A stretch of 33,749 bases of DNA from a virus. The stretch's first letter is position 1; each line of letters begins with the position of its first letter. A model generated the notes under the pieces. That model had not been told where the DNA came from, searched no databases, and saw only the letters and a list, made by a program, of their open reading frames with translations. The position numbers and the translations under genes are program-made. The DNA is taken from positions 1-33,749 of IMG/VR virus record IMGVR_UViG_3300029708_000027; one strand, written 5' to 3'. Positions 1-33,749 of the stretch are shown one piece after another.

Positions 1-99
1 ATACTGCTAACACCTATAGGCAAACCGCTTTCATTATGTCAATTTCCACCCGAGCGAATCCTTATACCAATACCACGTTTGAACCGTTCCATTCTTGAA
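1..99. repeat. Terminal direct repeat, copy 1 (identical to 33651..33749); circular-closure overlap
   Basis: Read directly: ATACTGCTAACACCTATAGG...CCATTCTTGAA at 1..99 recurs exactly at 33651..33749. The repeat cuts through the 3' end of CDS 34..444, which suggests an assembly overlap of a circular or permuted genome. Confidence 0.9.
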
Positions 100-1167: not shown

Positions 1168-1653
1168 CTATATTTTTGATGATACATTTTCCAAACCGTC
1201 TCCCATACTAACAAGCTTCATACCTCCGTTCTTACCACGGATATAGGCGGCTTGTACATTGCCGTGCTCGTCCGTAGAGAATTGGATACCCCGTACGCCT
1301 TCGTGCTCCTCGATAAGCTCGCCTATCGTCATATGCTTTGAGACTTCCTCCTCATCCATCAGCTCGTCCGGCTCTACCATCAGCTCGTCCGGCTCTACCA
1401 TCAGCTCGTCCGGCTCTACCATCAGCTCGTCCGGCTCTACCAGCATCCCGGCGTTGCGGTATACGTACGACGGAAACTCATCATCGGACACGCCTATATC
1501 GGTAAGGCCCCAGGTCTGCCAACCCTCATGGCTAACACCTAATATCACGCCGAGCATATCGTTCCAACCAACTACCACGCCGGCATACTCACCGTTCTTG
1601 TTGAATACCGCACGCCCGGCGTACAGCAATGCAAAATCTTTGTTTCTAATCAT
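1168..1653 (-). CDS. Hypothetical protein with an internal (MVEPDEL)x4 repeat
   Basis: 161-aa ORF. The N-terminal part (VVVGWNDMLGVILGVSHEGWQTWGLTDIGV) resembles 1660..1938 and 6396..6671. The acidic heptad repeat is encoded by a perfect 21-bp tandem repeat. Confidence 0.65.
   Translation of the reverse strand: MIRNKDFALLYAGRAVFNKNGEYAGVVVGWNDMLGVILGVSHEGWQTWGLTDIGVSDDEFPSYVYRNAGMLVEPDELMVEPDELMVEPDELMVEPDELMDEEEVSKHMTIGELIEEHEGVRGIQFSTDEHGNVQAAYIRGKNGGMKLVSMGDGLENVSSKI
1357..1444. repeat. Perfect 21-bp tandem repeat, 4 full copies plus 4 nt (CATCAGCTCGTCCGGCTCTAC)
   Basis: Units at 1357..1377, 1378..1398, 1399..1419 and 1420..1440, then CAGC. In frame within CDS 1168..1653, encoding VEPDELM x4. 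Confidence 0.95.
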
Positions 1654-4437: not shown

Positions 4438-4680
4438 TTACTTCATTAATTTTGTTTTATAGAACACACAAATGCTTTTGAAATCCTGCTCATCCGATAC
4501 GTACCCCAGTGTTTTACGCGAAAGAAAATTAACGTCTCGGGTAATATCGCGTTGCAACTGGTCTAGAATTTCCTCGGTGTTACCGAACTTATCGTCGCGG
4601 ACATACAGCGCGCCGGACTTGATACCAAAGTACATACCCAAACGGTATTCAATTTCTTTTTTTAAACTTCTCTTTTTCAT
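4438..4680 (-). CDS. Hypothetical small protein
   Basis: 80-aa ORF. The ATG sits exactly 26 nt downstream of a TATCTTTG box. Confidence 0.65.
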   Translation of the reverse strand: MKKRSLKKEIEYRLGMYFGIKSGALYVRDDKFGNTEEILDQLQRDITRDVNFLSRKTLGYVSDEQDFKSICVFYKTKLMK

Positions 4681-4703
4681 GATTTCTGTTTTTTAATTTG
4701 ATG

Positions 4704-5045
4704 CTACAAAGATAACCCTTTTCCCGGTGCGTTGTTTATTTCCTTAACATTTCTTAAGAAGAAACTTATTGCAGCGTCCCTGCTTTCCAAATCATCGATA
4801 ACAAATACTTTGAAGCCTAAAGCCTCTAACTTGCTATGTACTAATAACTGTATCTTAGTTGGCTTCTTTCCTGTGGTCTTTATCTCGGCAAATCCTACAT
4901 ATCCACCCTGGCAAAGTATCATTCTATCCGGCAAACCTTTTACAAAGGTGGATAATAACTTTATTACCCACACTTTTTTTGTTCGGTTAAGCTTCTCGGA
5001 GAATGTGCGCTCTAAATCTTTTTCACTTATTATTTCCTTTGACAT
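4704..5045 (-). CDS. VRR-NUC domain nuclease
   Basis: GLPDRMILCQGGYVGFAEIKTTGKKPTKIQ matches the VRR-NUC core (PD...E.K...Q). Confidence 0.85.
   Translation of the reverse strand: MSKEIISEKDLERTFSEKLNRTKKVWVIKLLSTFVKGLPDRMILCQGGYVGFAEIKTTGKKPTKIQLLVHSKLEALGFKVFVIDDLESRDAAISFFLRNVKEINNAPGKGLSL
4707..4734 (-). promoter_or_regulatory. Bacteroidota-type promoter (class II-like) embedded in the 3' end of the VRR-NUC gene, for 4438..4680
   Basis: Minus strand reads AACAACGCACCGGGAAAAGGGT-TATCTTTG-N26-ATG. It is homologous to the 1965..2006 cassette (GGGAAAAGCGT-TATATTTG). Confidence 0.5.
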
Positions 5046-6924: not shown

Positions 6925-6951
6925 AATCTTAAGTTTTTAAATTATTATTAT

Positions 6952-6997
6952 TTCCTTTTGACATTACAAATATACGGCAAATAATGATAGGTTGTAT
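6952..6997 (-). promoter_or_regulatory. Bacteroidota-type promoter, class I cassette, for 6751..6924 and downstream genes
   Basis: Minus strand reads ATACAACCTATCATTATTTGCCG-TATATTTG-TAATGTCAAAAGGAA, with the box at 6967..6974. It is 42/46 identical to 16660..16705. Confidence 0.6.
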
Positions 6998-7063
6998 ATT
7001 TCATTAACACCATTTAAGAAATAAATCTCATTTAGTTATTCTGTTAACTGTTAGTTAACATTT

Positions 7064-13470: not shown

Positions 13471-13779
13471 TTAACCTTGTTTAACTTTAAAAGTTTTTGG
13501 TGCTATTGAAATAGCATAATCTAAATCTTTTTGGTCTGCCCACCGTACGGTATACCTCTGTTCATCTTTGTAGTATGCACCAGAGCTATACCGGTCTAGC
13601 TTTCTAATAGCTTTAATCTCGTCCATGCTGAATTCCTTTAGAGCTACTAAAAGTTTTTGCATGTCTGTGGAGGTTCTTTCAAGTTCTTTTTTAGTCCATG
13701 TGCGGAATTGATTTTTGTTCCGAAACTTTGTTCTTTCTTGAATCCCTTTCTCTGTTAGAATACCATTGTTACTTTTCAT
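13471..13779 (-). CDS. Hypothetical protein
   Basis: 102-aa basic ORF. The ATG sits exactly 26 nt downstream of a TATATTTG box. Confidence 0.65.
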   Translation of the reverse strand: MKSNNGILTEKGIQERTKFRNKNQFRTWTKKELERTSTDMQKLLVALKEFSMDEIKAIRKLDRYSSGAYYKDEQRYTVRWADQKDLDYAISIAPKTFKVKQG

Positions 13780-13805
13780 ATCGTTTTGTTTTTAAATTGA
13801 TAGTG

Positions 13806-13847
13806 CAAATATAACGCTTTATCTGGTGGGTTGGTTCTTTCGTTAAC
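13806..13847 (-). promoter_or_regulatory. Bacteroidota-type promoter, class II cassette, for 13471..13779
   Basis: Minus strand reads GTTAACGAAAGAACCAAC-N19-TATATTTG-N26-ATG, with the box at 13806..13813 and GTTAAC at 13842..13847. Confidence 0.6.
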
Positions 13848-13852
13848 TTCTT

Positions 13853-15031
13853 TTATGAATTTAATTCCTCGAAGTCATCTATAGTTGGTCTTAATTCTTC
13901 CCTCTTATCGCTTTCGGGGACTAAAGTTGGCAGCCCTTGCGACTTGACTATCAGCCCGTCAAGTGTTGCGGCGAGCGGTTTCTTACCAACCAGGCGTTCG
14001 AGGTCTCCGATACCTTTCAACTTTCTGTTAGTTACGTCCTCGGTAGATAACCCGATGGCCTTTAGGCGTTCTATGGCTGTTTCCGTGTCGTTTATGACAC
14101 GTACCGAGCGACCCTTTACAAGCTTCCACCCCTTGACCTTTTCGCCCCGTGTGGCGGCTTGCATCGCGAATGTCTTAACCGATGCCAGCCAGTCGGTGAA
14201 CATATCGGACTCGCTTAATATATCGCCTATCTCGTCAAGCGTTAATGCCTTGGTGTCCCTGTAGGTCTCGAACTCGTTAACTAAAGCATCTTTCTGTGCC
14301 CTGCATTGTGCTTTGAACTTGCAGAACTTACAATGACTTCCTACTTTTGTTTCCCCTTGTCCTGCCCATGCCTTTTCAGCCGTCGGGCGAAGTACGTGTA
14401 TAGCCCAGTGGGTCAAGTCCCGTGCGGACATCTCGAATACCGAGTAATTGCCTAACCGTACTTGTGCGATGTGCATGCGTACCGTTTCAATCTTGGAACG
14501 GTGCACTGGCTCTAAGGAGTTAAGAACTCCAATAGCGTACATCATCAATTGGCTGTTTTTGTTTGCATCTACTTGTACTCCCTTACCGTATTTTAAATCT
14601 ATGATGTTTAGGACCGTATCGCCTACTATGTCACAGTCACAGCTACCGAAACACTCGGGAACGTATGTGGTTAGGTCGAACTTCCGTTCTATACTCATTT
14701 TAGCACCTTCCTCCAGTTCGTATATGTCACACACGTAGCAAACGTAATCTGTTACGTAGTGTTCCATTTCTGAACTATAATATTTGTTGTTACGTATCTC
14801 ATCGGGTACGGGCAATTCGTCCAATAACGGTAGGTATTCCCCGGCTAAATACTTTTCTATCGCGTGCTCTGCCAACTCGTGCGCTACCGTTCCCTCTTCC
14901 GATGCTGCGCTACTCGTGCTCTCATACGGTTCTTCCAACCGTGCAGACGGTGTGCAGTTAAGCCATCTATGCGAGCTGCTCGGAGAAAGTAGGGCGTGTG
15001 CCCTACTTGTGTGGTCTACTTGTACTTTCAT
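13853..15031 (-). CDS. DUF2800-type PD-(D/E)XK nuclease (Cas4/RecB-like, with a C-terminal Cys cluster)
   Basis: N-terminus HALLSPSSSHRWLNCTPS, nuclease core IIDLKYGKG, and cysteine cluster CKFCKFKAQC. Confidence 0.8.
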   Translation of the reverse strand: MKVQVDHTSRAHALLSPSSSHRWLNCTPSARLEEPYESTSSAASEEGTVAHELAEHAIEKYLAGEYLPLLDELPVPDEIRNNKYYSSEMEHYVTDYVCYVCDIYELEEGAKMSIERKFDLTTYVPECFGSCDCDIVGDTVLNIIDLKYGKGVQVDANKNSQLMMYAIGVLNSLEPVHRSKIETVRMHIAQVRLGNYSVFEMSARDLTHWAIHVLRPTAEKAWAGQGETKVGSHCKFCKFKAQCRAQKDALVNEFETYRDTKALTLDEIGDILSESDMFTDWLASVKTFAMQAATRGEKVKGWKLVKGRSVRVINDTETAIERLKAIGLSTEDVTNRKLKGIGDLERLVGKKPLAATLDGLIVKSQGLPTLVPESDKREELRPTIDDFEELNS

Positions 15032-15908: not shown

Positions 15909-15960
15909 TTGCCTGCAAATACTTTTTTACTTCGTCGATAATAAACTTTTGCTCTTTCAT
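15766..15960 (-). CDS. Upstream frame of a split small gene
   Basis: The ATG at 15960 sits exactly 26 nt downstream of a TATATTTG box. The N-terminus MKEQKFIIDEVKKYLQASARKNKYQVIDAVQEMPTFEGF looks protein-like, while the last ~25 aa look out of frame. Confidence 0.55.
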   Translation of the reverse strand: MKEQKFIIDEVKKYLQASARKNKYQVIDAVQEMPTFEGFILPLLRLYNGRDKIPGKRRGDVYLL

Positions 15961-15986
15961 AACTTTATCTTTTTAAATTGTTGATG

Positions 15987-16028
15987 CAAATATAACGCTT
16001 TTGCAAATACGTTGGTTCACTTGTTAAC
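15987..16028 (-). promoter_or_regulatory. Bacteroidota-type promoter, class II cassette, for 15766..15960
   Basis: Minus strand reads GTTAACAAGTGAACCAAC-N19-TATATTTG-N26-ATG, with the box at 15987..15994 and GTTAAC at 16023..16028. Confidence 0.6.
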
Positions 16029-16241
16029 CTTATTTAAGAAAATAGCTTCCATAAGGTTCTGCATGTGCCCGTATACCATACCGTTGTATTGGTATGCCTC
16101 AAATCTCCCGTTATGGCGTACCTCTGAAAAAGTATCGCTATACTCGTTGCCCGCCTCGTCTATAAATACTAATACGTGGCTCTTCATCTCGAACTGACCG
16201 GCGGTCAGCGTTTCTCTAAAAATTAAATCAATTGCTTTCAT
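16017..16241 (-). CDS. Hypothetical small protein
   Basis: 74-aa ORF preceded by GAACC-hairpin cassette copy 3. Confidence 0.6.
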   Translation of the reverse strand: MKAIDLIFRETLTAGQFEMKSHVLVFIDEAGNEYSDTFSEVRHNGRFEAYQYNGMVYGHMQNLMEAIFLNKVNK

Positions 16242-16796: not shown

Positions 16797-17030
16797 CTGC
16801 ACTGCACAGAAACACACCTAAATTCCTAAACTTTAATATAGGATATAGTGGTTTATACAGCTCGTTCTATAGTGGTAAATGCTATTTTCTCCAGGATAAT
16901 GTTTTACCCCCTTTTTACTGTGCATACTGTGCATTTACATATAATGTATTATAATATAGAGAGTTAGAGTGCACAAAAAACTGCACAGTAGCGATTTTTT
17001 ACTGTGCATCTGTGTCTAAAGAATGTTAAC
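16797..17030. repeat. Junction module, copy A (noncoding, homologous to 33311..33534)
   Basis: Alignable by eye along its whole length with copy B in the same orientation. Carries five TGCACAGTA-type sites, a hairpin, TTGTGC-17-TATAAT on the minus strand, and a conserved CCACTATATCCTATATTAAAGTTTA block. Confidence 0.85.
16982..17008 (-). terminator. Conserved hairpin plus T-run inside module A
   Basis: TGCACAGTA (16982..16990) and TACTGTGCA (17000..17008) form 9 bp around a 9-nt loop. On the minus strand the hairpin is followed by GTTTTTTG. Confidence 0.4.
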
Positions 17031-18155: not shown

Positions 18156-18654
18156 CTTCTTTCTCCTTTTCTTCTAAGGGTATATCGAATTCGCCATCCT
18201 TAATTTTTTTCTTAAGTTGGAAATACTTGATATTCGCTATGCTGTTAAGCACCTTCACGAATTCATTTCCCGGCTGTACTACCCGTAGGTTTCTTGTTAT
18301 GCTACGCGCGTATATAATAAGGAATATACCCGTGAGCGCCTTAACTAAAAGCTGATAATCTATTCCCGGCTCTAACATATTGCAAGTAAGGGCCACAAAG
18401 AAAAGAATCACATTGGTTAGGAACAACTCCTTAACCGCCTGCATGGTCTTTTTATGCTTGTAGGGCTTTCCTTTTGCCCGGTCTGCCAAATAACCTACCA
18501 ACCAGTTCAACGCGGTAACTATGACCACTAAAAATATAAAATCCCGTATATCCGTAACTACTGCCAGAACGGTAACAGCAAAAAACGTGCGGAAATAGGT
18601 CTCTAGTTGTTCTATCACTTGATTAACCCTATACGGGTATTCAATACTATACAT
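18139..18654 (-). CDS. Putative holin (multi-pass membrane protein)
   Basis: 171 aa with about four hydrophobic helices (FFAVTVLAVV, FIFLVVIVTALNWLVGYL, LFLTNVILFFVALT, LTGIFLIIYA). Charged C-terminus. Lies immediately upstream of the endolysin gene and overlaps it. Confidence 0.55.
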   Translation of the reverse strand: MYSIEYPYRVNQVIEQLETYFRTFFAVTVLAVVTDIRDFIFLVVIVTALNWLVGYLADRAKGKPYKHKKTMQAVKELFLTNVILFFVALTCNMLEPGIDYQLLVKALTGIFLIIYARSITRNLRVVQPGNEFVKVLNSIANIKYFQLKKKIKDGEFDIPLEEKEKEDGKQQ

Positions 18655-19046
18655 GCCTTTATAAACCCGTCTGCCTTCATTTGGCTTATCAACGGCTCTA
18701 TAAAAAGGTCTGCCTTGCCCCGTTCGGCCTCAAACCTTTTAACCTTGCTTGTATCGGGAACGACTACCGAGCCCCCATAGGTCTGAATCTTCATACCCGT
18801 GCTCGTACTGTTTTGGTCTGCTATCTGCAAATAACGCGCAAACGCGTAGTAGCAAATAACCTTTTCAAGTCCTGCGAAGTTAGACCCGTCCGCGATATAT
18901 TTATCCGGTACGGCATCGTACATGCTGCCTATCTGCGGCAATATGTCGAGTAGGTCCGCCTCGAAGAACGCCTTTTCTATCTTGTTGCCTTTAACGTCTG
19001 TTGCTATCTCAAACAACTGACGGAACACTTCCACCGGGTATGCCAT
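18615..19046 (-). CDS. Hypothetical virion-associated protein (head-tail connector candidate)
   Basis: ORF directly after the portal gene. I favour the start MAYPVEVF at 19046 (the track start is 19088). No motif recognised. Confidence 0.45.
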   Translation of the reverse strand: MAYPVEVFRQLFEIATDVKGNKIEKAFFEADLLDILPQIGSMYDAVPDKYIADGSNFAGLEKVICYYAFARYLQIADQNSTSTGMKIQTYGGSVVVPDTSKVKRFEAERGKADLFIEPLISQMKADGFIKACIVLNTRIGLIK

Positions 19047-20166
19047 CTTCTTCAAATTTATTATTAATTTCTGTAACTGACGGGTCAACCCCGAACACTT
19101 GGTACAACTCGCGTGAAATACGTTGGCGTATCTTTTGCAAGCTATTGCGATAGACCTTTTGCAGCTCCTTTATAACCTCGCCCGAAGCGTTAGAATAGGT
19201 CATCAGAGAGCTATCAATAAGGGGTAACGGAATGTTATATGCCGCTATTGCGATATCCTTTCTAAGGGGCTCTACATATGCCTTGTAAAGCTCTCTATCT
19301 ATCGGGCTTCCCAACTGGTCTACCTTGATAAACGGTTTGTCCGTAGCTACGTTTTCATCTCTCACCGTAAGAACAGAGCCAGCGTTCTCGCTACCCATCA
19401 TATCGGCTAATGTATCTCTGAACTCTTGCTGTGCCTGCTCGGTCTCGAAATCACCGTGCGACACGATACTACACATGTGGAAACCCCTGCCCAAAGTACG
19501 GTTAACGTATTTGCCGTTCTTGTCCTCCGCGCCCATCTCGTTACGTACCGAATGGAACGTGCTAAGGGGGTACGGGCGCGTTGTACCAAGGTTCACGTAT
19601 AGTAGTTGCCCTTTATGGTTCTCGATACCTCCGCACTCCTCAACTTCTGATGCGAAGTTATCCGGGTCAAAGGTAGGATATACCGTGGAGTTCTGCGCGC
19701 TGCTCGTTGCCTTGACGTTCTGCCTGTCCCAATTATTGAAAACGCGCCATCTCTTTATGGCCGGGTCTTTCAAATAATTATCGTTCATCTCGGCACGGAC
19801 ATACTCAAATGGAACGTTGTACACGTTTCGGGGCTTGTAGCCTTCGGGCGTCAGCCCGTACTGTACTATCCAAGCCCAGCCCCTAAAACGTGCGACATCG
19901 TTTGCCGTAGCCTCTAAAACATCGTCCATGTTACAGCCGTTCCCGTTTGTTATCGCCGCGAAATCTTCGTTTTTGAAGCCCTCACAAATAATGTTCTCGG
20001 TCATTTTTTCAACTGCTGCCGTAGCTGTCTTTGAAGCGTATATAAGTTCTGCTATCTCCTGCGGATATAAGTTGCCGTCACCGTAGTTAATAATCTTATC
20101 GCCCGTATTAGCGGACAACTTAAGCGCCTTTTCGACAACAAGCGCGAAACGTCTGTAACCTATCAT
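19009..20166 (-). CDS. Portal protein
   Basis: 385 aa. Portal-like strings YPQEIAELIYASKTATAAVEKMTENIICEGF and MMGSENAGSVLTV (G..NAG motif). Confidence 0.7.
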   Translation of the reverse strand: MIGYRRFALVVEKALKLSANTGDKIINYGDGNLYPQEIAELIYASKTATAAVEKMTENIICEGFKNEDFAAITNGNGCNMDDVLEATANDVARFRGWAWIVQYGLTPEGYKPRNVYNVPFEYVRAEMNDNYLKDPAIKRWRVFNNWDRQNVKATSSAQNSTVYPTFDPDNFASEVEECGGIENHKGQLLYVNLGTTRPYPLSTFHSVRNEMGAEDKNGKYVNRTLGRGFHMCSIVSHGDFETEQAQQEFRDTLADMMGSENAGSVLTVRDENVATDKPFIKVDQLGSPIDRELYKAYVEPLRKDIAIAAYNIPLPLIDSSLMTYSNASGEVIKELQKVYRNSLQKIRQRISRELYQVFGVDPSVTEINNKFEEDGIPGGSVPSVV

Positions 20167-20168
20167 TT

Positions 20169-20525
20169 TTAAACCTCCTCTTTATTGATTTCTACGAAGC
20201 ATTCCGCATAAGCCGGGTTTTCAGTCATGAGGCGTTCCGCGATTTCGTCAGTCATGTTTGCACTCTTATACACAACACCATCGACGTAATGCACGATACG
20301 CGCCCCGGGCTTCATTGCCCATCTGTAAACCACCTTAGTTAAATACTTCGTTTCATACCACAAAGATAAATATTCCATATCCATGTGGCAATTAGGGTCA
20401 AGTTTTAGACCTGTCATTGCGAAATACGCGTCTAATTTTTCCTGTAATGTTGCAACCTTCGGTTCAACAACAACGGGTGCAGTGCTTTCGCCCTGCCCCG
20501 TAGTATTTGTTTTTTCTTCTGCCAT
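20169..20525 (-). CDS. Hypothetical protein
   Basis: 118-aa ORF tightly packed between paralog 3 and the portal gene. Confidence 0.6.
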   Translation of the reverse strand: MAEEKTNTTGQGESTAPVVVEPKVATLQEKLDAYFAMTGLKLDPNCHMDMEYLSLWYETKYLTKVVYRWAMKPGARIVHYVDGVVYKSANMTDEIAERLMTENPAYAECFVEINKEEV

Positions 20526-20540
20526 TTTCTTTTTGATTTA

Positions 20541-21095
20541 TTATGTTTCTGCTGGTGTGGATAACGCGTCATAATCTGCCCTTGACAAGTTGTGAATCGT
20601 TGTCCCTACCTGCCAATCCTCGACGCCATAGGTGTATGTTATATATTCGTTTGCGCTTGAATCGCCCGATATCTCGGTACAAACCAATGGGGCGCCCAAA
20701 CCATAAACGCGTACTATGTCACCGTGGTCTACTGCAATAACGAGTTCTGCGCGCGATAACGCGCCTACAGAACCCATAGGCGTAAAAGCACTTGCTAACG
20801 CGTACTCCCCGGAAAACGTTTTGAACGTAATTGATACGTCGTAAGCCCCGGGCATAATGTCCTGCGACTTCAAACCGACTGTCACAACCAAAGCGTTGTT
20901 AGCCGCCGTAATGTCCCAGCCTGCCGATGTGGGAACCCTTGTAATGGTTGCCTCTCCCGTGGTGGAGGATATTGTAAAACTTGATATATCCGAAGCGTTT
21001 AAAAGCTTTGCCGATACTGGTCTACCTAAGTCTGCCCGTGCAGGCGCGCCGCAAGGCATAGCTAAAGATGCACCTATTTTTCCTATACATGCCAT
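20541..21095 (-). CDS. Structural paralog 3 of 3 (184 aa)
   Basis: N-terminus MACIGKIGASLAMPC with the Cys3/Cys15 pair shared with paralog 2. The C-terminal ADYDAL string is also shared with paralog 2. Confidence 0.7.
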   Translation of the reverse strand: MACIGKIGASLAMPCGAPARADLGRPVSAKLLNASDISSFTISSTTGEATITRVPTSAGWDITAANNALVVTVGLKSQDIMPGAYDVSITFKTFSGEYALASAFTPMGSVGALSRAELVIAVDHGDIVRVYGLGAPLVCTEISGDSSANEYITYTYGVEDWQVGTTIHNLSRADYDALSTPAET

Positions 21096-21126
21096 ATTAT
21101 TTTTTCCTTTCCTTTTTAGTTAATTA

Positions 21127-21666
21127 CTATCCTACTGCTGCCTTATAAAGTGCGTCGTAGTCTGCCACTGACATAGCCACAGAATCCTCTCCGATAACGT
21201 TTTCGGGCGTTTCCAAAGTGAACGTAGTCCAGTTACCGTTTTCGTGCGAGTTGTTGTCAATTGCTGTAGCGGATAACCCGTAATACAGTCCGTAGACGCG
21301 CGGAAACATCCCGTCAGTAGGTTTCGCGATAATCACAAACGACCCGTTAGCAAAAGACTGCATAACTTGCCGCCAAGCGACGTCTACTGTATCAGTGAAT
21401 ATAATTGACGCGGAATGGGTGTTTGCATTTGGCGCGCCGTCGTTAACCTTTAGTGCAGTAGACAAAACGAGTGACCTCTTAACCGTGTCAATTTTGTAAG
21501 CCTTCGCCCCGGACGCTAACGCGAGTCCCGATACAACCATAGTGTTGCCATCCACTGAAAAGCTGGCTATATCCGCTTTATTAATAATAATCGCGCTATT
21601 TAAACCAGTCGCGCCACTGTCGCAATTATAAACGATTGCTCTTGCCAATTTTGAAATACAAGCCAT
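21127..21666 (-). CDS. Structural paralog 2 of 3 (179 aa)
   Basis: N-terminus MACISKLARAIVYNC. LASGAKAYKI matches FASGAKSYKV of paralog 1. C-terminal ADYDAL. Confidence 0.7.
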   Translation of the reverse strand: MACISKLARAIVYNCDSGATGLNSAIIINKADIASFSVDGNTMVVSGLALASGAKAYKIDTVKRSLVLSTALKVNDGAPNANTHSASIIFTDTVDVAWRQVMQSFANGSFVIIAKPTDGMFPRVYGLYYGLSATAIDNNSHENGNWTTFTLETPENVIGEDSVAMSVADYDALYKAAVG

Positions 21667-21668
21667 AA

Positions 21669-22181
21669 TTAAACTGATTTAGAGATTATTGATTCACGGA
21701 CGGCATTATAACACGTCATGTGTGCGTTTCCTGCCGAACCTTCCGGGTCGGACAATGTAACCGTTACAAGTGCTGCATTCGCGTTGCTGTCGAACTCCAT
21801 TGCCGAACACTCTAAAGGGCATTGAACACCCACAATCCCGGCAGAAGCATCTGCGTATTGTACCATCACATAGAACTTACCCGTTGCGAGTGTAGACATT
21901 ATAGAGCCGTCGGCGGGCATCTTAAAAGTCACCGATGTGTTCAACCTCGCAGAAGCGTCTGTTGTTTTAAGGGTTGCGGTGTACTGTAGGTTTTGTTTAT
22001 ACCCTTCCACCTTGTAGCTTTTCGCGCCACTGGCAAAAGATATAGCTGAAACCGCCATCCCAATGGAAGTCAAAGTAACATCTTCTGTGTGCATCAGATA
22101 TATGTCCTTAAGCCCCACTTGCGTAATACCGCAAGGCTGCAAGATATTACCCGAAAGCTTATTTAAACAATTTTTTCCCAT
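21669..22181 (-). CDS. Structural paralog 1 of 3 (170 aa)
   Basis: N-terminus MGKNCLNKLSGNILQPC (Cys5/Cys17, the same C-x11-C spacing) and FASGAKSYKV. It is the first gene after the capsid-gene terminator. Confidence 0.7.
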   Translation of the reverse strand: MGKNCLNKLSGNILQPCGITQVGLKDIYLMHTEDVTLTSIGMAVSAISFASGAKSYKVEGYKQNLQYTATLKTTDASARLNTSVTFKMPADGSIMSTLATGKFYVMVQYADASAGIVGVQCPLECSAMEFDSNANAALVTVTLSDPEGSAGNAHMTCYNAVRESIISKSV

Positions 22182-22190
22182 ATTATTTGA

Positions 22191-28384: not shown

Positions 28385-29404
28385 TTAAGGTTCTATAATT
28401 TCAAACTTGCATTTAAACGCTGCTACACGACCAGCCGCACCGCCTTGTATGTTCAGCGCGTTCGGGTTCTGTATCGTGACCCGTGCCCACTGGTTGGTAG
28501 CCAAAGGGAATACCCCGGCAACCTCGCCCGAACGTGAAAGCCAGTACAACGCGTTTTGGTTATCATCGGTTACTACTACGTTTATTGTAACGTCGTAGGA
28601 CAACACGCGGTTGCCGCCCGAGAAGTTAACCAAGTAGGTAGGAACGATGCGATATTGGTCGAAATACATCGTATCATAAGCGCCTTTGCTGTTAAGCCAT
28701 CGAAGCGTTACCCTCTTGTTGGGGTCCGGGCAATACGGGTATTTACGTTCAAAACGTGCGTAGCCCCATACGCTGGCATCGTTTGCGGTTCTAAACTCTC
28801 TCATGGGCTGGTATGCCGACTGCGATGCGGACGAATTAGCCCAAATGCCAGACGTACCCGTACCGTCGTTCCTAAACCGTAGTCTACCGTCCGAGTTTGC
28901 GGTTTGCTGCCCGTATCTTAGAGCAAAGTTAAACGGTGTACCCGTTAACGGACTGTTAAGAAACGAAGCACAGCTAAAGTCCAACTGGTTAAACATCCCG
29001 TTACCGTAGTCGGATAGATTAATAGTGCTCGCGTCCCAAGCGTTACGCGCGTTTGCTACCGGGGAGTGTACAACGCGCATAGAGATTGACTTCTGCGCAC
29101 CATCCCAGTATTGTATTTGCACCAAGTCGACGAAATCAGTAGCCGCCGGCTCTGCTTTAATGCTCTCCGTTATGCTTGGTGTCGCGGCTGCCATCATCGA
29201 CATATCCAATATAGCACCCTCGTATGAGGTAACGGTAGCCGCTGCCTTGGTAGCGCCATTACGCAAAAAGAAAAGGGCTATACTCGTAACTGAACCTACC
29301 TGCTCCAATCGTATAGGGCGATATATGCCTGCGCCGATGCCGCCAATTACCGTATAGCCAGCTTCCGCGGTGGTTTCGTTAGTTAATAGATTTCGTATAA
29401 TCAT
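28385..29404 (-). CDS. Virion protein (tail candidate)
   Basis: 339-aa ORF within the structural block, with a 4-nt overlap with the upstream gene. No motif recognised. Confidence 0.55.
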   Translation of the reverse strand: MIIRNLLTNETTAEAGYTVIGGIGAGIYRPIRLEQVGSVTSIALFFLRNGATKAAATVTSYEGAILDMSMMAAATPSITESIKAEPAATDFVDLVQIQYWDGAQKSISMRVVHSPVANARNAWDASTINLSDYGNGMFNQLDFSCASFLNSPLTGTPFNFALRYGQQTANSDGRLRFRNDGTGTSGIWANSSASQSAYQPMREFRTANDASVWGYARFERKYPYCPDPNKRVTLRWLNSKGAYDTMYFDQYRIVPTYLVNFSGGNRVLSYDVTINVVVTDDNQNALYWLSRSGEVAGVFPLATNQWARVTIQNPNALNIQGGAAGRVAAFKCKFEIIEP

Positions 29405-29843: not shown

Positions 29844-30188
29844 TTAAATATACTTAAACCAGCTAAAATGTTTCCTTGTCTTCGGGTAGTATACATCGTG
29901 CTCGTTGTCGTATGCTTCCCTCTCGAAGCTCATGCGGTCATATGGTTTGTCGTTCGGGTCACATGGTTTCTTCTCGAAGCTCCAACCGAAGAAGCGAATA
30001 ACGTACTCGATACCATACCACAAGTAAAACGGCACATACAGCATTTCGCGCATTTGCATCGTGTGGATGTGTTCGTGTCTTAACGTCTTTTCGCTAATAG
30101 CCGCGTTACCACGTACGAAGAGAACGCCGAATAGGTTAATAGCCTTGAAGCCTTTAACCGGGATAATGTTGTTTCTGATGATTTTCAT
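29844..30188 (-). CDS. Small HExxH protein (putative minimal zinc metallopeptidase-like)
   Basis: 114 aa. LRHEHIHTMQMRE contains HEHIH, and a downstream EREAY string offers possible third-ligand Glu residues. It has its own TACTTTTG box 24 nt upstream. Confidence 0.55.
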   Translation of the reverse strand: MKIIRNNIIPVKGFKAINLFGVLFVRGNAAISEKTLRHEHIHTMQMREMLYVPFYLWYGIEYVIRFFGWSFEKKPCDPNDKPYDRMSFEREAYDNEHDVYYPKTRKHFSWFKYI

Positions 30189-33310: not shown

Positions 33311-33534
33311 GCACATGTACAGACACACACCTGTTTTCGTAAACTTTAATATAGAATATAGTGGTTTTTATACCCCTCAAAATACACTTTTCTCCAAAAT
33401 AATGTTATACCCCTCTTTTTACTGTACATCTGTACATATACATATAATATATTATAATAGAGAGAGTTAGAGTGCACAAAAACATGTACAGTAGCGATTT
33501 TTTTACTGTACATGTGTACCTAAAATATGTTAAT
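33311..33534. repeat. Junction module, copy B (noncoding, homologous to 16797..17030)
   Basis: Same layout as copy A, but all five motif sites read TGTACAGTA. Conserved CCACTATATTCTATATTAAAGTTTA block and TTGTGC-17-TATAAT on the minus strand. Confidence 0.85.
33482..33515 (-). terminator. Conserved hairpin plus T-run inside module B
   Basis: ACATGTACAGTA (33482..33493) and TACTGTACATGT (33504..33515) form 12 bp around a 10-nt loop. On the minus strand the hairpin is followed by TTTTTG. Confidence 0.45.
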
Positions 33535-33650: not shown

Positions 33651-33749
33651 ATACTGCTAACACCTATAGGCAAACCGCTTTCATTATGTCAATTTCCACC
33701 CGAGCGAATCCTTATACCAATACCACGTTTGAACCGTTCCATTCTTGAA
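33651..33749. repeat. Terminal direct repeat, copy 2 (identical to 1..99)
   Basis: Exact 99-bp duplicate of the left end. It contains a redundant copy of the 3' end of CDS 34..444. Confidence 0.9.

Follow-up and report, generated by a model that had tools for sequence, protein, structure and literature searches.

Why would a small phage genome carry three similar genes in a row between its capsid and portal genes, and what do these genes encode? The question is raised by the IMG/VR virus record IMGVR_UViG_3300029708_000027, the whole of which (33,749 nucleotides (nt), referred to here as the window) was analysed. Three consecutive open reading frames (ORFs) of this record are called A, B and C below, in the order of their transcription (Table 1). 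An earlier note, made from the letters of the DNA, had proposed that they are three specialised versions of one virion building block, with tail-tube-like subunits, capsid decoration or cement proteins and vertex proteins as the candidates. We lean, though not strongly, towards reading A, B and C as tail-tube proteins that arose by ancient duplication, are not redundant and jointly build the tube, giving it a variable outer surface.

Paralogy, predicted fold and copy number

The three proteins are significantly similar in every pairing. Pairwise BLASTP aligns A with B at 28.7% identity over 157 amino acids (aa) (E 1.7e-17), B with C at 28.2% over 188 aa (E 3.5e-10) and A with C at 21.5% over 149 aa (E 2.9e-4). 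Because these matches are significant at 21-29% identity and nearly full length, we regard A, B and C as true paralogs. The earlier note had called the three ORFs mutually similar, and it is right in this for all three pairs, as it is in the coordinates, lengths, N-termini and motifs that it gave. The N-termini read MGKNCLNKLSGNILQPC in A, MACISKLARAIVYNC in B and MACIGKIGASLAMPC in C. FASGAKSYKV in A corresponds to LASGAKAYKI in B, and ADYDAL lies near the C-terminus of both B and C.

The triplet is flanked by the capsid gene and, past a 118-aa gene, by the portal gene. The A and B genes are 2 nt apart, a spacing which suggests translational coupling. Where the earlier note had placed a strong terminator, after the capsid gene, there is a terminator-like hairpin followed by a T-run; it probably attenuates transcription, in which case A, B and C would be made in amounts below that of the capsid protein.

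Structures were predicted with AlphaFold2 for A, from an alignment of 126 sequences (predicted local distance difference test (pLDDT) 77.7, predicted template modelling score (pTM) 0.73), and for B, from an alignment of 52 sequences across all three subfamilies (pLDDT 76.4, pTM 0.77). Both models show a beta-sandwich with a single internal helix and a further helix at the C-terminus; the N-terminal arm is poorly ordered in each. When the B model was compared with the PDB using Foldseek, it matched Hcp of the type VI secretion system, the SPP1 tube protein gp17.1 (6yeg, probability 0.97) and a monocin tube (8qhs, probability 0.97, template modelling (TM) score 0.43); further matches are lambda gpV (8k36), a gene transfer agent (GTA) tube and the tubes of T1 and YDC107. 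The A model matched a tail protein of phage 7-7-1 (9hz7_M, E 8e-4, probability 1.0), the Mu tube (9khy_A, probability 1.0) and the Milano tube (8fop, probability 0.98), and also phiKZ neck, PhiTE baseplate and GTA chains. The GTA structure 6tba is among the PDB matches of these models.

Both lists are made up mostly of tail-tube, Hcp and tube-like neck proteins, with probabilities of 0.9-1.0. The models thus have the beta-sandwich and single alpha-helix of solved tail tubes and Hcp, at weak scores (E 8e-4 to 0.1). What mainly argues for a predicted tube fold is that two separate models agree. Against the predicted viral structures of BFVD the B model has 25 matches with E<1e-3. Most of these are uncharacterised proteins; a single match bears the name 'Major tail protein' (TM 0.73, E 3e-8). 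At the level of profiles B matches phrog_21217 (E 2.8e-17), a family of 'unknown function' which is also matched by a single-copy relative from the distant locus L098 (E 4.7e-43); A and C by themselves do not pass the threshold of E 0.01.

No other gene of the window or of its relatives matches a major-tail-protein family in PHROGs, Pfam, NCBIfam or the PDB, or is annotated as such. The neighbouring proteins of 203, 146, 134, 157, 118, 339 and 534 aa gave no tail-tube match and show no similarity to the profile of the A, B and C family in hhalign. A siphophage must have a tube protein. The relatives of the window are siphoviruses by electron microscopy, with tails of ~114-120 nm (PMC12694917, among other sources). 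We read A, B and C as the probable tube because these relatives need one and no other protein of the genome matches a tube family.

Among 1.84 billion cluster representatives, 504 relatives, mostly of 170-195 aa, were detected by a profile search (cut-off E<1e-3). Copy number was counted in 80 related IMG/VR loci, and in all 79 that are complete there are exactly three tandem copies. The Bacteroides thetaiotaomicron phage ARB25 also has three. The marine Cellulophaga phage phi46:1 has two (gp04 and gp05), and L098 has one, of 164 aa, in the order protease, capsid, family member, small gene, portal. Queries with single proteins yielded just two distant loci. The remark of the earlier note that three paralogs are unusual for a 33-kb phage does not apply within this lineage.

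By their sub-profiles, A, B and C keep their positional orthology down to ~74% capsid identity, and the B-type sub-profile scores best on the copies of phi46:1 and L098. The comparative data argue that all three copies are needed and non-redundant, because of the three-copy loci (79/79), the positional orthology, a ratio of nonsynonymous to synonymous substitution (dN/dS) of 0.19-0.29 and conserved blocks specific to each paralog. The earlier view that all three genes are maintained is upheld by the same data. In some members of the family the C-terminus holds either BspA-type leucine-rich repeats (E 8.6e-65) or an IPT/TIG immunoglobulin-like (Ig-like) domain; this corresponds to the usual layout of siphophage major tail proteins, a tube domain with an adhesin that faces outward.

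The N-terminal arms each contain two cysteines, at the positions that the earlier note had read (5/17 in A, 3/15 in B and C). In 84 related loci the pair is present in 250 of the 252 A, B and C sequences, and it is found in the copies of phi46:1, ARB25 and L098 too. Most B proteins have no other cysteine. Of 118 full-length proteins representing the wider family, ~106 have such a pair at the extreme N-terminus, with a spacing of 10-13 (mostly 12) residues. The pair is a family signature, far more conserved than the earlier note could know. It could form a disulfide or a metal site shared between subunits, or it could be something else.

Two further observations concern the N-terminal region. 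The phi46:1 proteins gp04 and gp05 (L003, 2523-3777) have near-identical arms, MCNKKLTAALINDCTVSPVMGL and MCNKKLIGALINDCTVQPVMGL, and are divergent beyond them, which suggests gene conversion or a strong constraint on the arm. In the distant members P0453, P0459, P0464, P0497 and P0503 a hydrophobic, transmembrane-like extension of 50-75 aa stands in frame before the cysteine-pair motif; these extensions may be mis-called starts or genuine membrane-anchored variants.

A recombining hypervariable island

Variation was measured in 33 genomes, all with a capsid protein that shares 90% identity or more with that of the window. Mean pairwise protein identity is 95.2% for the capsid, 97.2% for the portal, 93.4% for the tape measure, 92.7% for the 118-aa protein and 95.9% for the lysin; it is 55.4% for A, 63.7% for B and 65.9% for C. 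The boundaries of this island are sharp and coincide with the three genes, mean pairwise nucleotide identity being 0.88-0.97 in the flanks and 0.40-0.75 inside. Relative to BU2-1 and BU3-1, two cultured relatives, the flanking proteins of the window are 90-98% identical, A 50-54%, B 59-66% and C 79%. The next most divergent structural protein in this comparison is the 339-aa protein (75-80%), which is likely a receptor-binding or distal tail protein. Within the structural module no diversity hotspot is as sharp as A, B and C, which vary more than the candidate receptor-binding gene. The pattern is repeated in three other backbone groups. The divergence between paralogs, which the earlier note had stressed, is less striking than the divergence between alleles of one paralog in near-identical phages.

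Alleles in the island are old. The median synonymous divergence (dS) is 1.4-1.8 inside, often saturated, versus 0.31-0.52 in the flanks, a difference of ~4x; dN/dS in the flanks is 0.03-0.12, below that of the island given above. With 80% identity as the limit, the 33 genomes hold ~20 allele groups of A, ~23 of B and ~17 of C. The distance matrices of the three genes correlate weakly (Mantel r 0.08-0.17). Alleles of A that are 86-91% identical to that of the window are found in phages whose capsid is 83-85% identical; between genomes A can be 91% identical at 83% capsid identity, yet 50% identical at 95%. In the loci L018 and L019, B is 91-95% identical to that of the window, A 50-52% and C 61-64%. 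The ~4x higher dS and the near-identical alleles on divergent backbones lead us to conclude that old allelic lineages are shuffled by recombination.

Other sources of the diversity were considered and rejected. Hypermutation in situ and simple relaxed constraint do not agree with a dS ~4x that of the flanks or with near-identical alleles on divergent backbones. A diversity-generating retroelement is rejected because there is no reverse transcriptase and no template and variable repeat, the variation is gene-wide and dS is raised. No reverse transcriptase was found among the predicted window proteins scanned, and the search for repeats pairing with the island gave nothing except a weak inverted match of 31 nt, 77% complementary, to the capsid gene. 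The window contains no silent cassettes or internal DNA repeats of the three genes.

Within the proteins the variation is patchy and falls at equivalent alignment positions in A, B and C. In B the patches are residues ~36-50, 88-107 (including the helix), 113-124 and 160-168. The other blocks are conserved within each paralog and differ between paralogs. Because the variable positions coincide in the alignment of the three, their patches would be equivalently exposed.

The paralog-specific blocks also suit a different division of labour, in which the major tube protein is a single paralog, most likely B, and the other two are low-copy specialists that form single rings at the tube ends, for example an initiator of the tube on the distal tail or hub complex, or an additional ring below the terminator. 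Tube-fold proteins of differing roles are common within one virion. T4 gp48 and gp54 relate to gp19 as end rings, and siphophage Dit and terminator proteins relate likewise to tube proteins. Tube-like chains of necks, terminators and baseplates are in the Foldseek lists, and B is closest to the single-copy relatives, with A and C looking derived. However, all three proteins are hypervariable in the same patches and to a similar degree, which one would not expect of rings buried at junctions. A gpU/DUF3168-like terminator is already encoded in the genome, as is a hub-like protein (annotated as late control protein D in a relative), and end-ring proteins elsewhere usually lack detectable sequence similarity to the tube protein. 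We consider such a division of labour unlikely.

The alleles may be connected to the host. In four cluster-alpha phages of B. thetaiotaomicron, which come from Ann Arbor, San Jose and Honolulu and were isolated on one host strain, the A, B and C proteins are 97-100% identical, and those of a fifth, BT23 (Livermore), are 85-92% identical to the other four; the capsids of these phages are 95-99% identical. BU241P1 and BU241P2, from the same host strain, are 98% identical in the capsid, 93% in A, 67% in B and 97% in C. For EMB1 and EMB2, again from one host strain, the values are 98% for the capsid, 85% for A and 91% for B, C not being compared. BU241P1 and EMB2, which have different host strains, are 96% identical in the capsid, 56% in A, 63% in B and 57% in C. 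These comparisons of a handful of phages suggest that alleles track the host strain. Phage susceptibility in relatives belonging to the proposed family 'Bacteroiduroviridae' depends on phase-variable capsules. Capsule-specific host range has been linked to the gp8 alleles of the B. thetaiotaomicron cluster-alpha phages (Hryckowian et al. 2020). Possible selecting agents on A, B and C are contact with the capsule along the tube, or strain-specific intracellular sensors of tube proteins.

Weighing the tail-tube reading

Several points weigh against a tail tube built from A, B and C. Structural scores against solved tubes are low (E 8e-4 to 0.1, TM 0.3-0.5), and the three proteins have no sequence or profile match in Pfam, NCBIfam or the PDB and belong to no curated major-tail-protein family there. 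Their genes belong by position to the head module, where capsid and portal flank them, and are not adjacent to the tape measure gene. According to the GenBank notes on phi46:1, in which virion proteins found by tandem mass spectrometry (MS/MS) are flagged, seven other proteins are flagged and the homologs gp04 and gp05 are not; no other tube candidate of phi46:1 was detected by MS/MS either, which makes this negative uninformative. There is no cryo-electron microscopy or proteomics of these phages in the literature searched. The 203-aa protein encoded after TerL is without an assigned role, as is the 118-aa protein. The hydrophobic N-terminal extensions of five family representatives are odd for a tube protein. 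Hypervariability is missing in the B. thetaiotaomicron cluster-alpha isolates and in a small group of four genomes. The host link comes from a handful of phages, among which the same-host pair BU241P1 and BU241P2 differs strongly in B (67%).

The gene position and the weak scores would be explained if A, B and C were capsid-associated proteins (decoration, cement or vertex proteins) whose beta-sandwich resembles that of tubes, the true tube being encoded elsewhere, for example by the gene for the 203-aa protein. The family always lies directly after the capsid gene and before the portal gene, even where it has a single copy (L098), and variability is common in decoration proteins of the surface, which can also bear Ig-like or adhesin domains. 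Against this, both models retrieve tube and Hcp proteins and no decoration proteins, no other gene gave a tube signal in the family and profile searches, and a published structural comparison points to the tail tube (PMC12694917). We find a role on the capsid improbable. Among the candidates of the earlier note it is thus the tail-tube subunit that gains support, from the AlphaFold2 and Foldseek results for A and B and from the published analysis; for decoration or cement proteins the support comes down to gene position.

The MS/MS result raises a further alternative, that the proteins stay in the cell and act as decoys or inhibitors of host defences that sense tubes, or as assembly factors, with their variability reflecting an arms race with strain-specific immunity. 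Extreme variability, allele exchange and an apparent link to the host strain are features of anti-defence loci. However, the genes share the orientation of the late structural operon in which they lie, their conservation extends from marine phages to those of the gut, and the phage is otherwise without an identifiable tube protein. The conserved arm and the paralog-specific blocks suggest a structure that assembles. A PADLOC scan of the three proteins matched no defence-system model. A non-virion function appears very improbable.

If A, B and C do form the tail tube, the following mechanism can be proposed. Each protein would have the beta-sandwich-plus-helix fold of Hcp, gpV and gp17.1 behind a flexible N-terminal arm bearing the near-invariant Cys-x11-Cys. 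The three genes would be transcribed through read-through of the attenuator after the capsid gene, and their products would polymerise around a trimeric tape measure (835 aa) into a non-contractile tube of ~115-125 nm. The blocks conserved within each paralog would supply the ring and stack contacts and line the lumen. The cysteine pair of the arm would act as a clamp between subunits, through a disulfide formed after release or a shared metal site. The four equivalent patches of each protein would face outward, and selection tied to the host strain, either diversifying over the long term or frequency-dependent, would keep them highly diverse. Whole-gene alleles would pass between phage backbones through recombination at the conserved junctions of the genes.

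A bolder form of this proposal, which we hold to be possible but doubtful, makes the tube a three-component hetero-polymer of cysteine-locked subunits. Its outer surface would then be a combinatorial, recombining 'serotype', drawn from dozens of old allelic lineages per gene, which would reassort with little restriction and be selected by the host strain.

Genome setting and known tubes

An exact direct repeat of 99 nt is found at the two ends of the window (1-99 and 33651-33749), and we therefore take it to be a complete, circularly assembled genome of ~33,650 bp (~33.65 kb). A contig from a public gut metagenome (locus L007, ENA sample ERZ27256449) is 100% identical over 11 kb. All long ORFs of the window are on the minus strand. 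The 10-kb stretch around the triplet has ~89% DNA identity to the cultured Bacteroides uniformis phages BU183P1, BU3-1, BU2-1 and EMB2. Judged from its sequence, the window phage is a lytic B. uniformis siphophage of the proposed 'Bacteroiduroviridae', and it agrees with the description of these as lytic siphophages of Bacteroidaceae, 30-40 kb in size and homologous to BU3-1, BKR1 and BT2.

In the direction of transcription the late genes encode TerS, TerL, proteins of 203, 134, 114, 146, 339 and 534 aa, the tape measure protein, a 342-aa protein, the major capsid protein, A, B, C, the 118-aa protein, the portal, the 157-aa protein (DUF6712), the holin and the lysin. The 134-aa protein has a DUF3168-like annotation in BU2-1 and BU3-1, and its counterpart in BF1-2 is annotated as minor tail protein U. 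The 534-aa protein is annotated as 'late control gene D' in BU3-1. The tape measure is predicted to set a tail length of ~125 nm, and the tube must polymerise around it.

Table 1. Coordinates of the three genes, their parts and other features of the window
Feature	Position	Strand	Remarks
Paralog A, 170 aa	21669..22181	minus	predicted tail-tube fold; most variable of the three
Paralog B, 179 aa	21127..21666	minus	predicted tail-tube fold; copy closest to single- and two-copy relatives
Paralog C, 184 aa	20541..21095	minus	predicted tail-tube fold by homology to B; 240 bits against the family hidden Markov model
N-terminal arm of A, Cys5 and Cys17	22131..22181	minus	pair in 84/84 A orthologs; low pLDDT
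N-terminal arm of B, Cys3 and Cys15	21622..21666	minus	C-x11-C in 84/84 B orthologs; pLDDT <50 at residues 1-19
N-terminal arm of C, Cys3 and Cys15	21051..21095	minus	pair in 82/84 C orthologs
Hypervariable island, exactly the three genes	20540..22182	minus	from nucleotide identity and dS in 33 genomes
Conserved islets in the island	~21647-21702; ~21143		A/B junction; B/C junction
Terminator-like hairpin between capsid stop codon and start of A	22227-22197	minus	12-bp stem with 7 G-C pairs, 7-nt loop, then TTTATTT
Major capsid protein gene, 314 aa	22247..23191	minus	phrog_1623 (weak); annotated as major capsid (XkdG-like) in BU2-1 and BU3-1
118-aa gene	20169-20525		separates C from portal
Portal gene	19009..20166	minus	phrog_11226, E 2.6e-38
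157-aa ORF	18615-19088	minus	TTG start; overlaps end of portal gene; weak DUF6712 match
Tape measure protein, 835 aa	24257..26764	minus	PHROG tape-measure families, E down to 5.9e-13
339-aa protein	28385-29404	minus	positional ortholog of ARB25/SJC01 gp8
114-aa gene	29844-30188	minus	phrog_15610 ('protease', E 1.5e-35); between the terminator-like 134-aa gene and the 146-aa gene

Some of the other genes deserve comment. The 114-aa gene is without a counterpart at this position in BU2-1 and looks like an insertion. Gene calls on identical and related contigs start the 157-aa ORF at an internal ATG, which gives 143 aa; its ortholog in phi46:1, gp08, matches DUF6712 with E 1e-13 and is a virion protein by MS/MS. 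The B. thetaiotaomicron and B. fragilis relatives ARB25 (gp4 and gp5; L017, 2476-7150) and BF1-2 (gp42 and gp43; L016, 6871-11601) have two extra large genes, of ~640-670 aa and ~900 aa, between the 203-aa-like and terminator-like genes. These are absent in the lineage of the window, and they have been described as Ig-like and beta-helix tail proteins (PMC12694917).

The window also contains several repeats. Copies of a repeat of ~40-90 nt (families D1-D4) lie at 1932-2023, 4674-4765, 6934-7025, 13773-13864 and 15954-16045, with further shorter copies, upstream of early and middle genes on the minus strand, and read on that strand they contain TTATATTTG. The -7 promoter box of Bacteroides is TAnnTTTG; from this resemblance the repeats are probably repeated promoters of the replication module. 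A non-coding region of ~200 nt is present twice (16803-17029 and 33316-33533; D8, D9 and D11) at 83-91% identity, in one case upstream of TerS and in the second between the modules for lysis and replication; possibly it is a duplicated regulatory region, or one of pac or ori type. Five tandem 21-nt repeats (D5, 1346-1450) encode a repeated heptapeptide in a 161-aa protein without a family match (ORF 1168-1653, minus strand).

The core of the triplet finding is already known, for phages ~89% identical to the window. A 2025 paper in Gut Microbes (PMC12694917), which proposes 'Bacteroiduroviridae' with BU3-1 as a representative, reports three genes related to the tail, whose predicted structures are similar and which probably encode the tube; it describes them as lacking sequence homologues and leaves their redundancy unclear. 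This is the same locus. BU2-1 and BU3-1 have the order capsid, three genes, small gene, portal, with an ortholog of each of the three paralogs in the corresponding place, and the window likewise has three adjacent genes of similar structure between capsid and portal. The account given here differs in that the three are sequence paralogs, strictly three in number, with a conserved cysteine pair and within a recombining hypervariable island; the paper contains no mention of cysteines, proteomics, recombination or diversification. Three things are not in the literature searched: the strict conservation of three copies, together with the series of one, two and three copies in increasingly close relatives; the family-wide cysteine pair; and the sharply delimited hypervariability of all three genes, with its recombining old alleles.

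The tubes of siphophages, Hcp, monocins and pyocins, such as lambda gpV, SPP1 gp17.1 and T5 pb6, are like A, B and C in the predicted beta-sandwich and helix, the N-terminal arm and a size of ~170-185 aa. gpV and gp17.1* have C-terminal Ig-like or adhesin domains, as do relatives in the A, B and C family. Known siphophage tubes are encoded by one gene, whereas here there are three paralogous genes without membership of a curated tail family. In T5 two tube domains are fused in one chain, which gives pseudo-sixfold symmetry. Genes for tube proteins usually rank with the better conserved ones of a virion, unlike the three genes described here, which are the most variable.

More than one tube gene has a precedent in the Microbacterium phage Damascus (cluster EL), in which two proteins, gp17 and gp19, carry the annotation of major tail protein. 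Actinobacteriophages of this type, likened here by annotation only, are unrelated, have two genes and show no reported hypervariability or cysteine motif. In NBD2 gp39, of the PF08813 branch, two conserved cysteines per tube subunit have been proposed to stabilise the tube (Protein Sci 2026, PMC13576161). There C108 and C126 are in the body and a beta-hairpin and link successive rings, whereas both cysteines of A, B and C are in the N-terminal arm, 12 residues apart. A, B and C do not match PF08813, and their cysteines are away from the gp39 positions.

The exchange of deep alleles between near-identical backbones and the apparent host link are shared with receptor-binding and tail-fibre cassettes of the gp8 type. 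These have fibre, lectin or BACON architectures, in contrast to the tube fold predicted here, and the gp8 ortholog of the window is moderately variable.

The triplet is a published hallmark of an abundant family of Bacteroides phages of the human gut, and hypervariability is unexpected for tube proteins. Close relatives are in culture (BU3-1, BU2-1, EMB1 and EMB2), so that direct testing is possible. If the variable patches are the outer surface of the tube, the locus would provide a marker for typing 'Bacteroiduroviridae' in viromes, and a tractable hetero-oligomeric siphophage tube with a conserved cysteine clamp. In gut bacteria rich in capsules it would also point to phage-host specificity or immune evasion at a new level. 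Should the tube be a hetero-polymer with a combinatorial 'serotype', then the tube, besides the tail tip, would be a determinant of host specificity or immune evasion.

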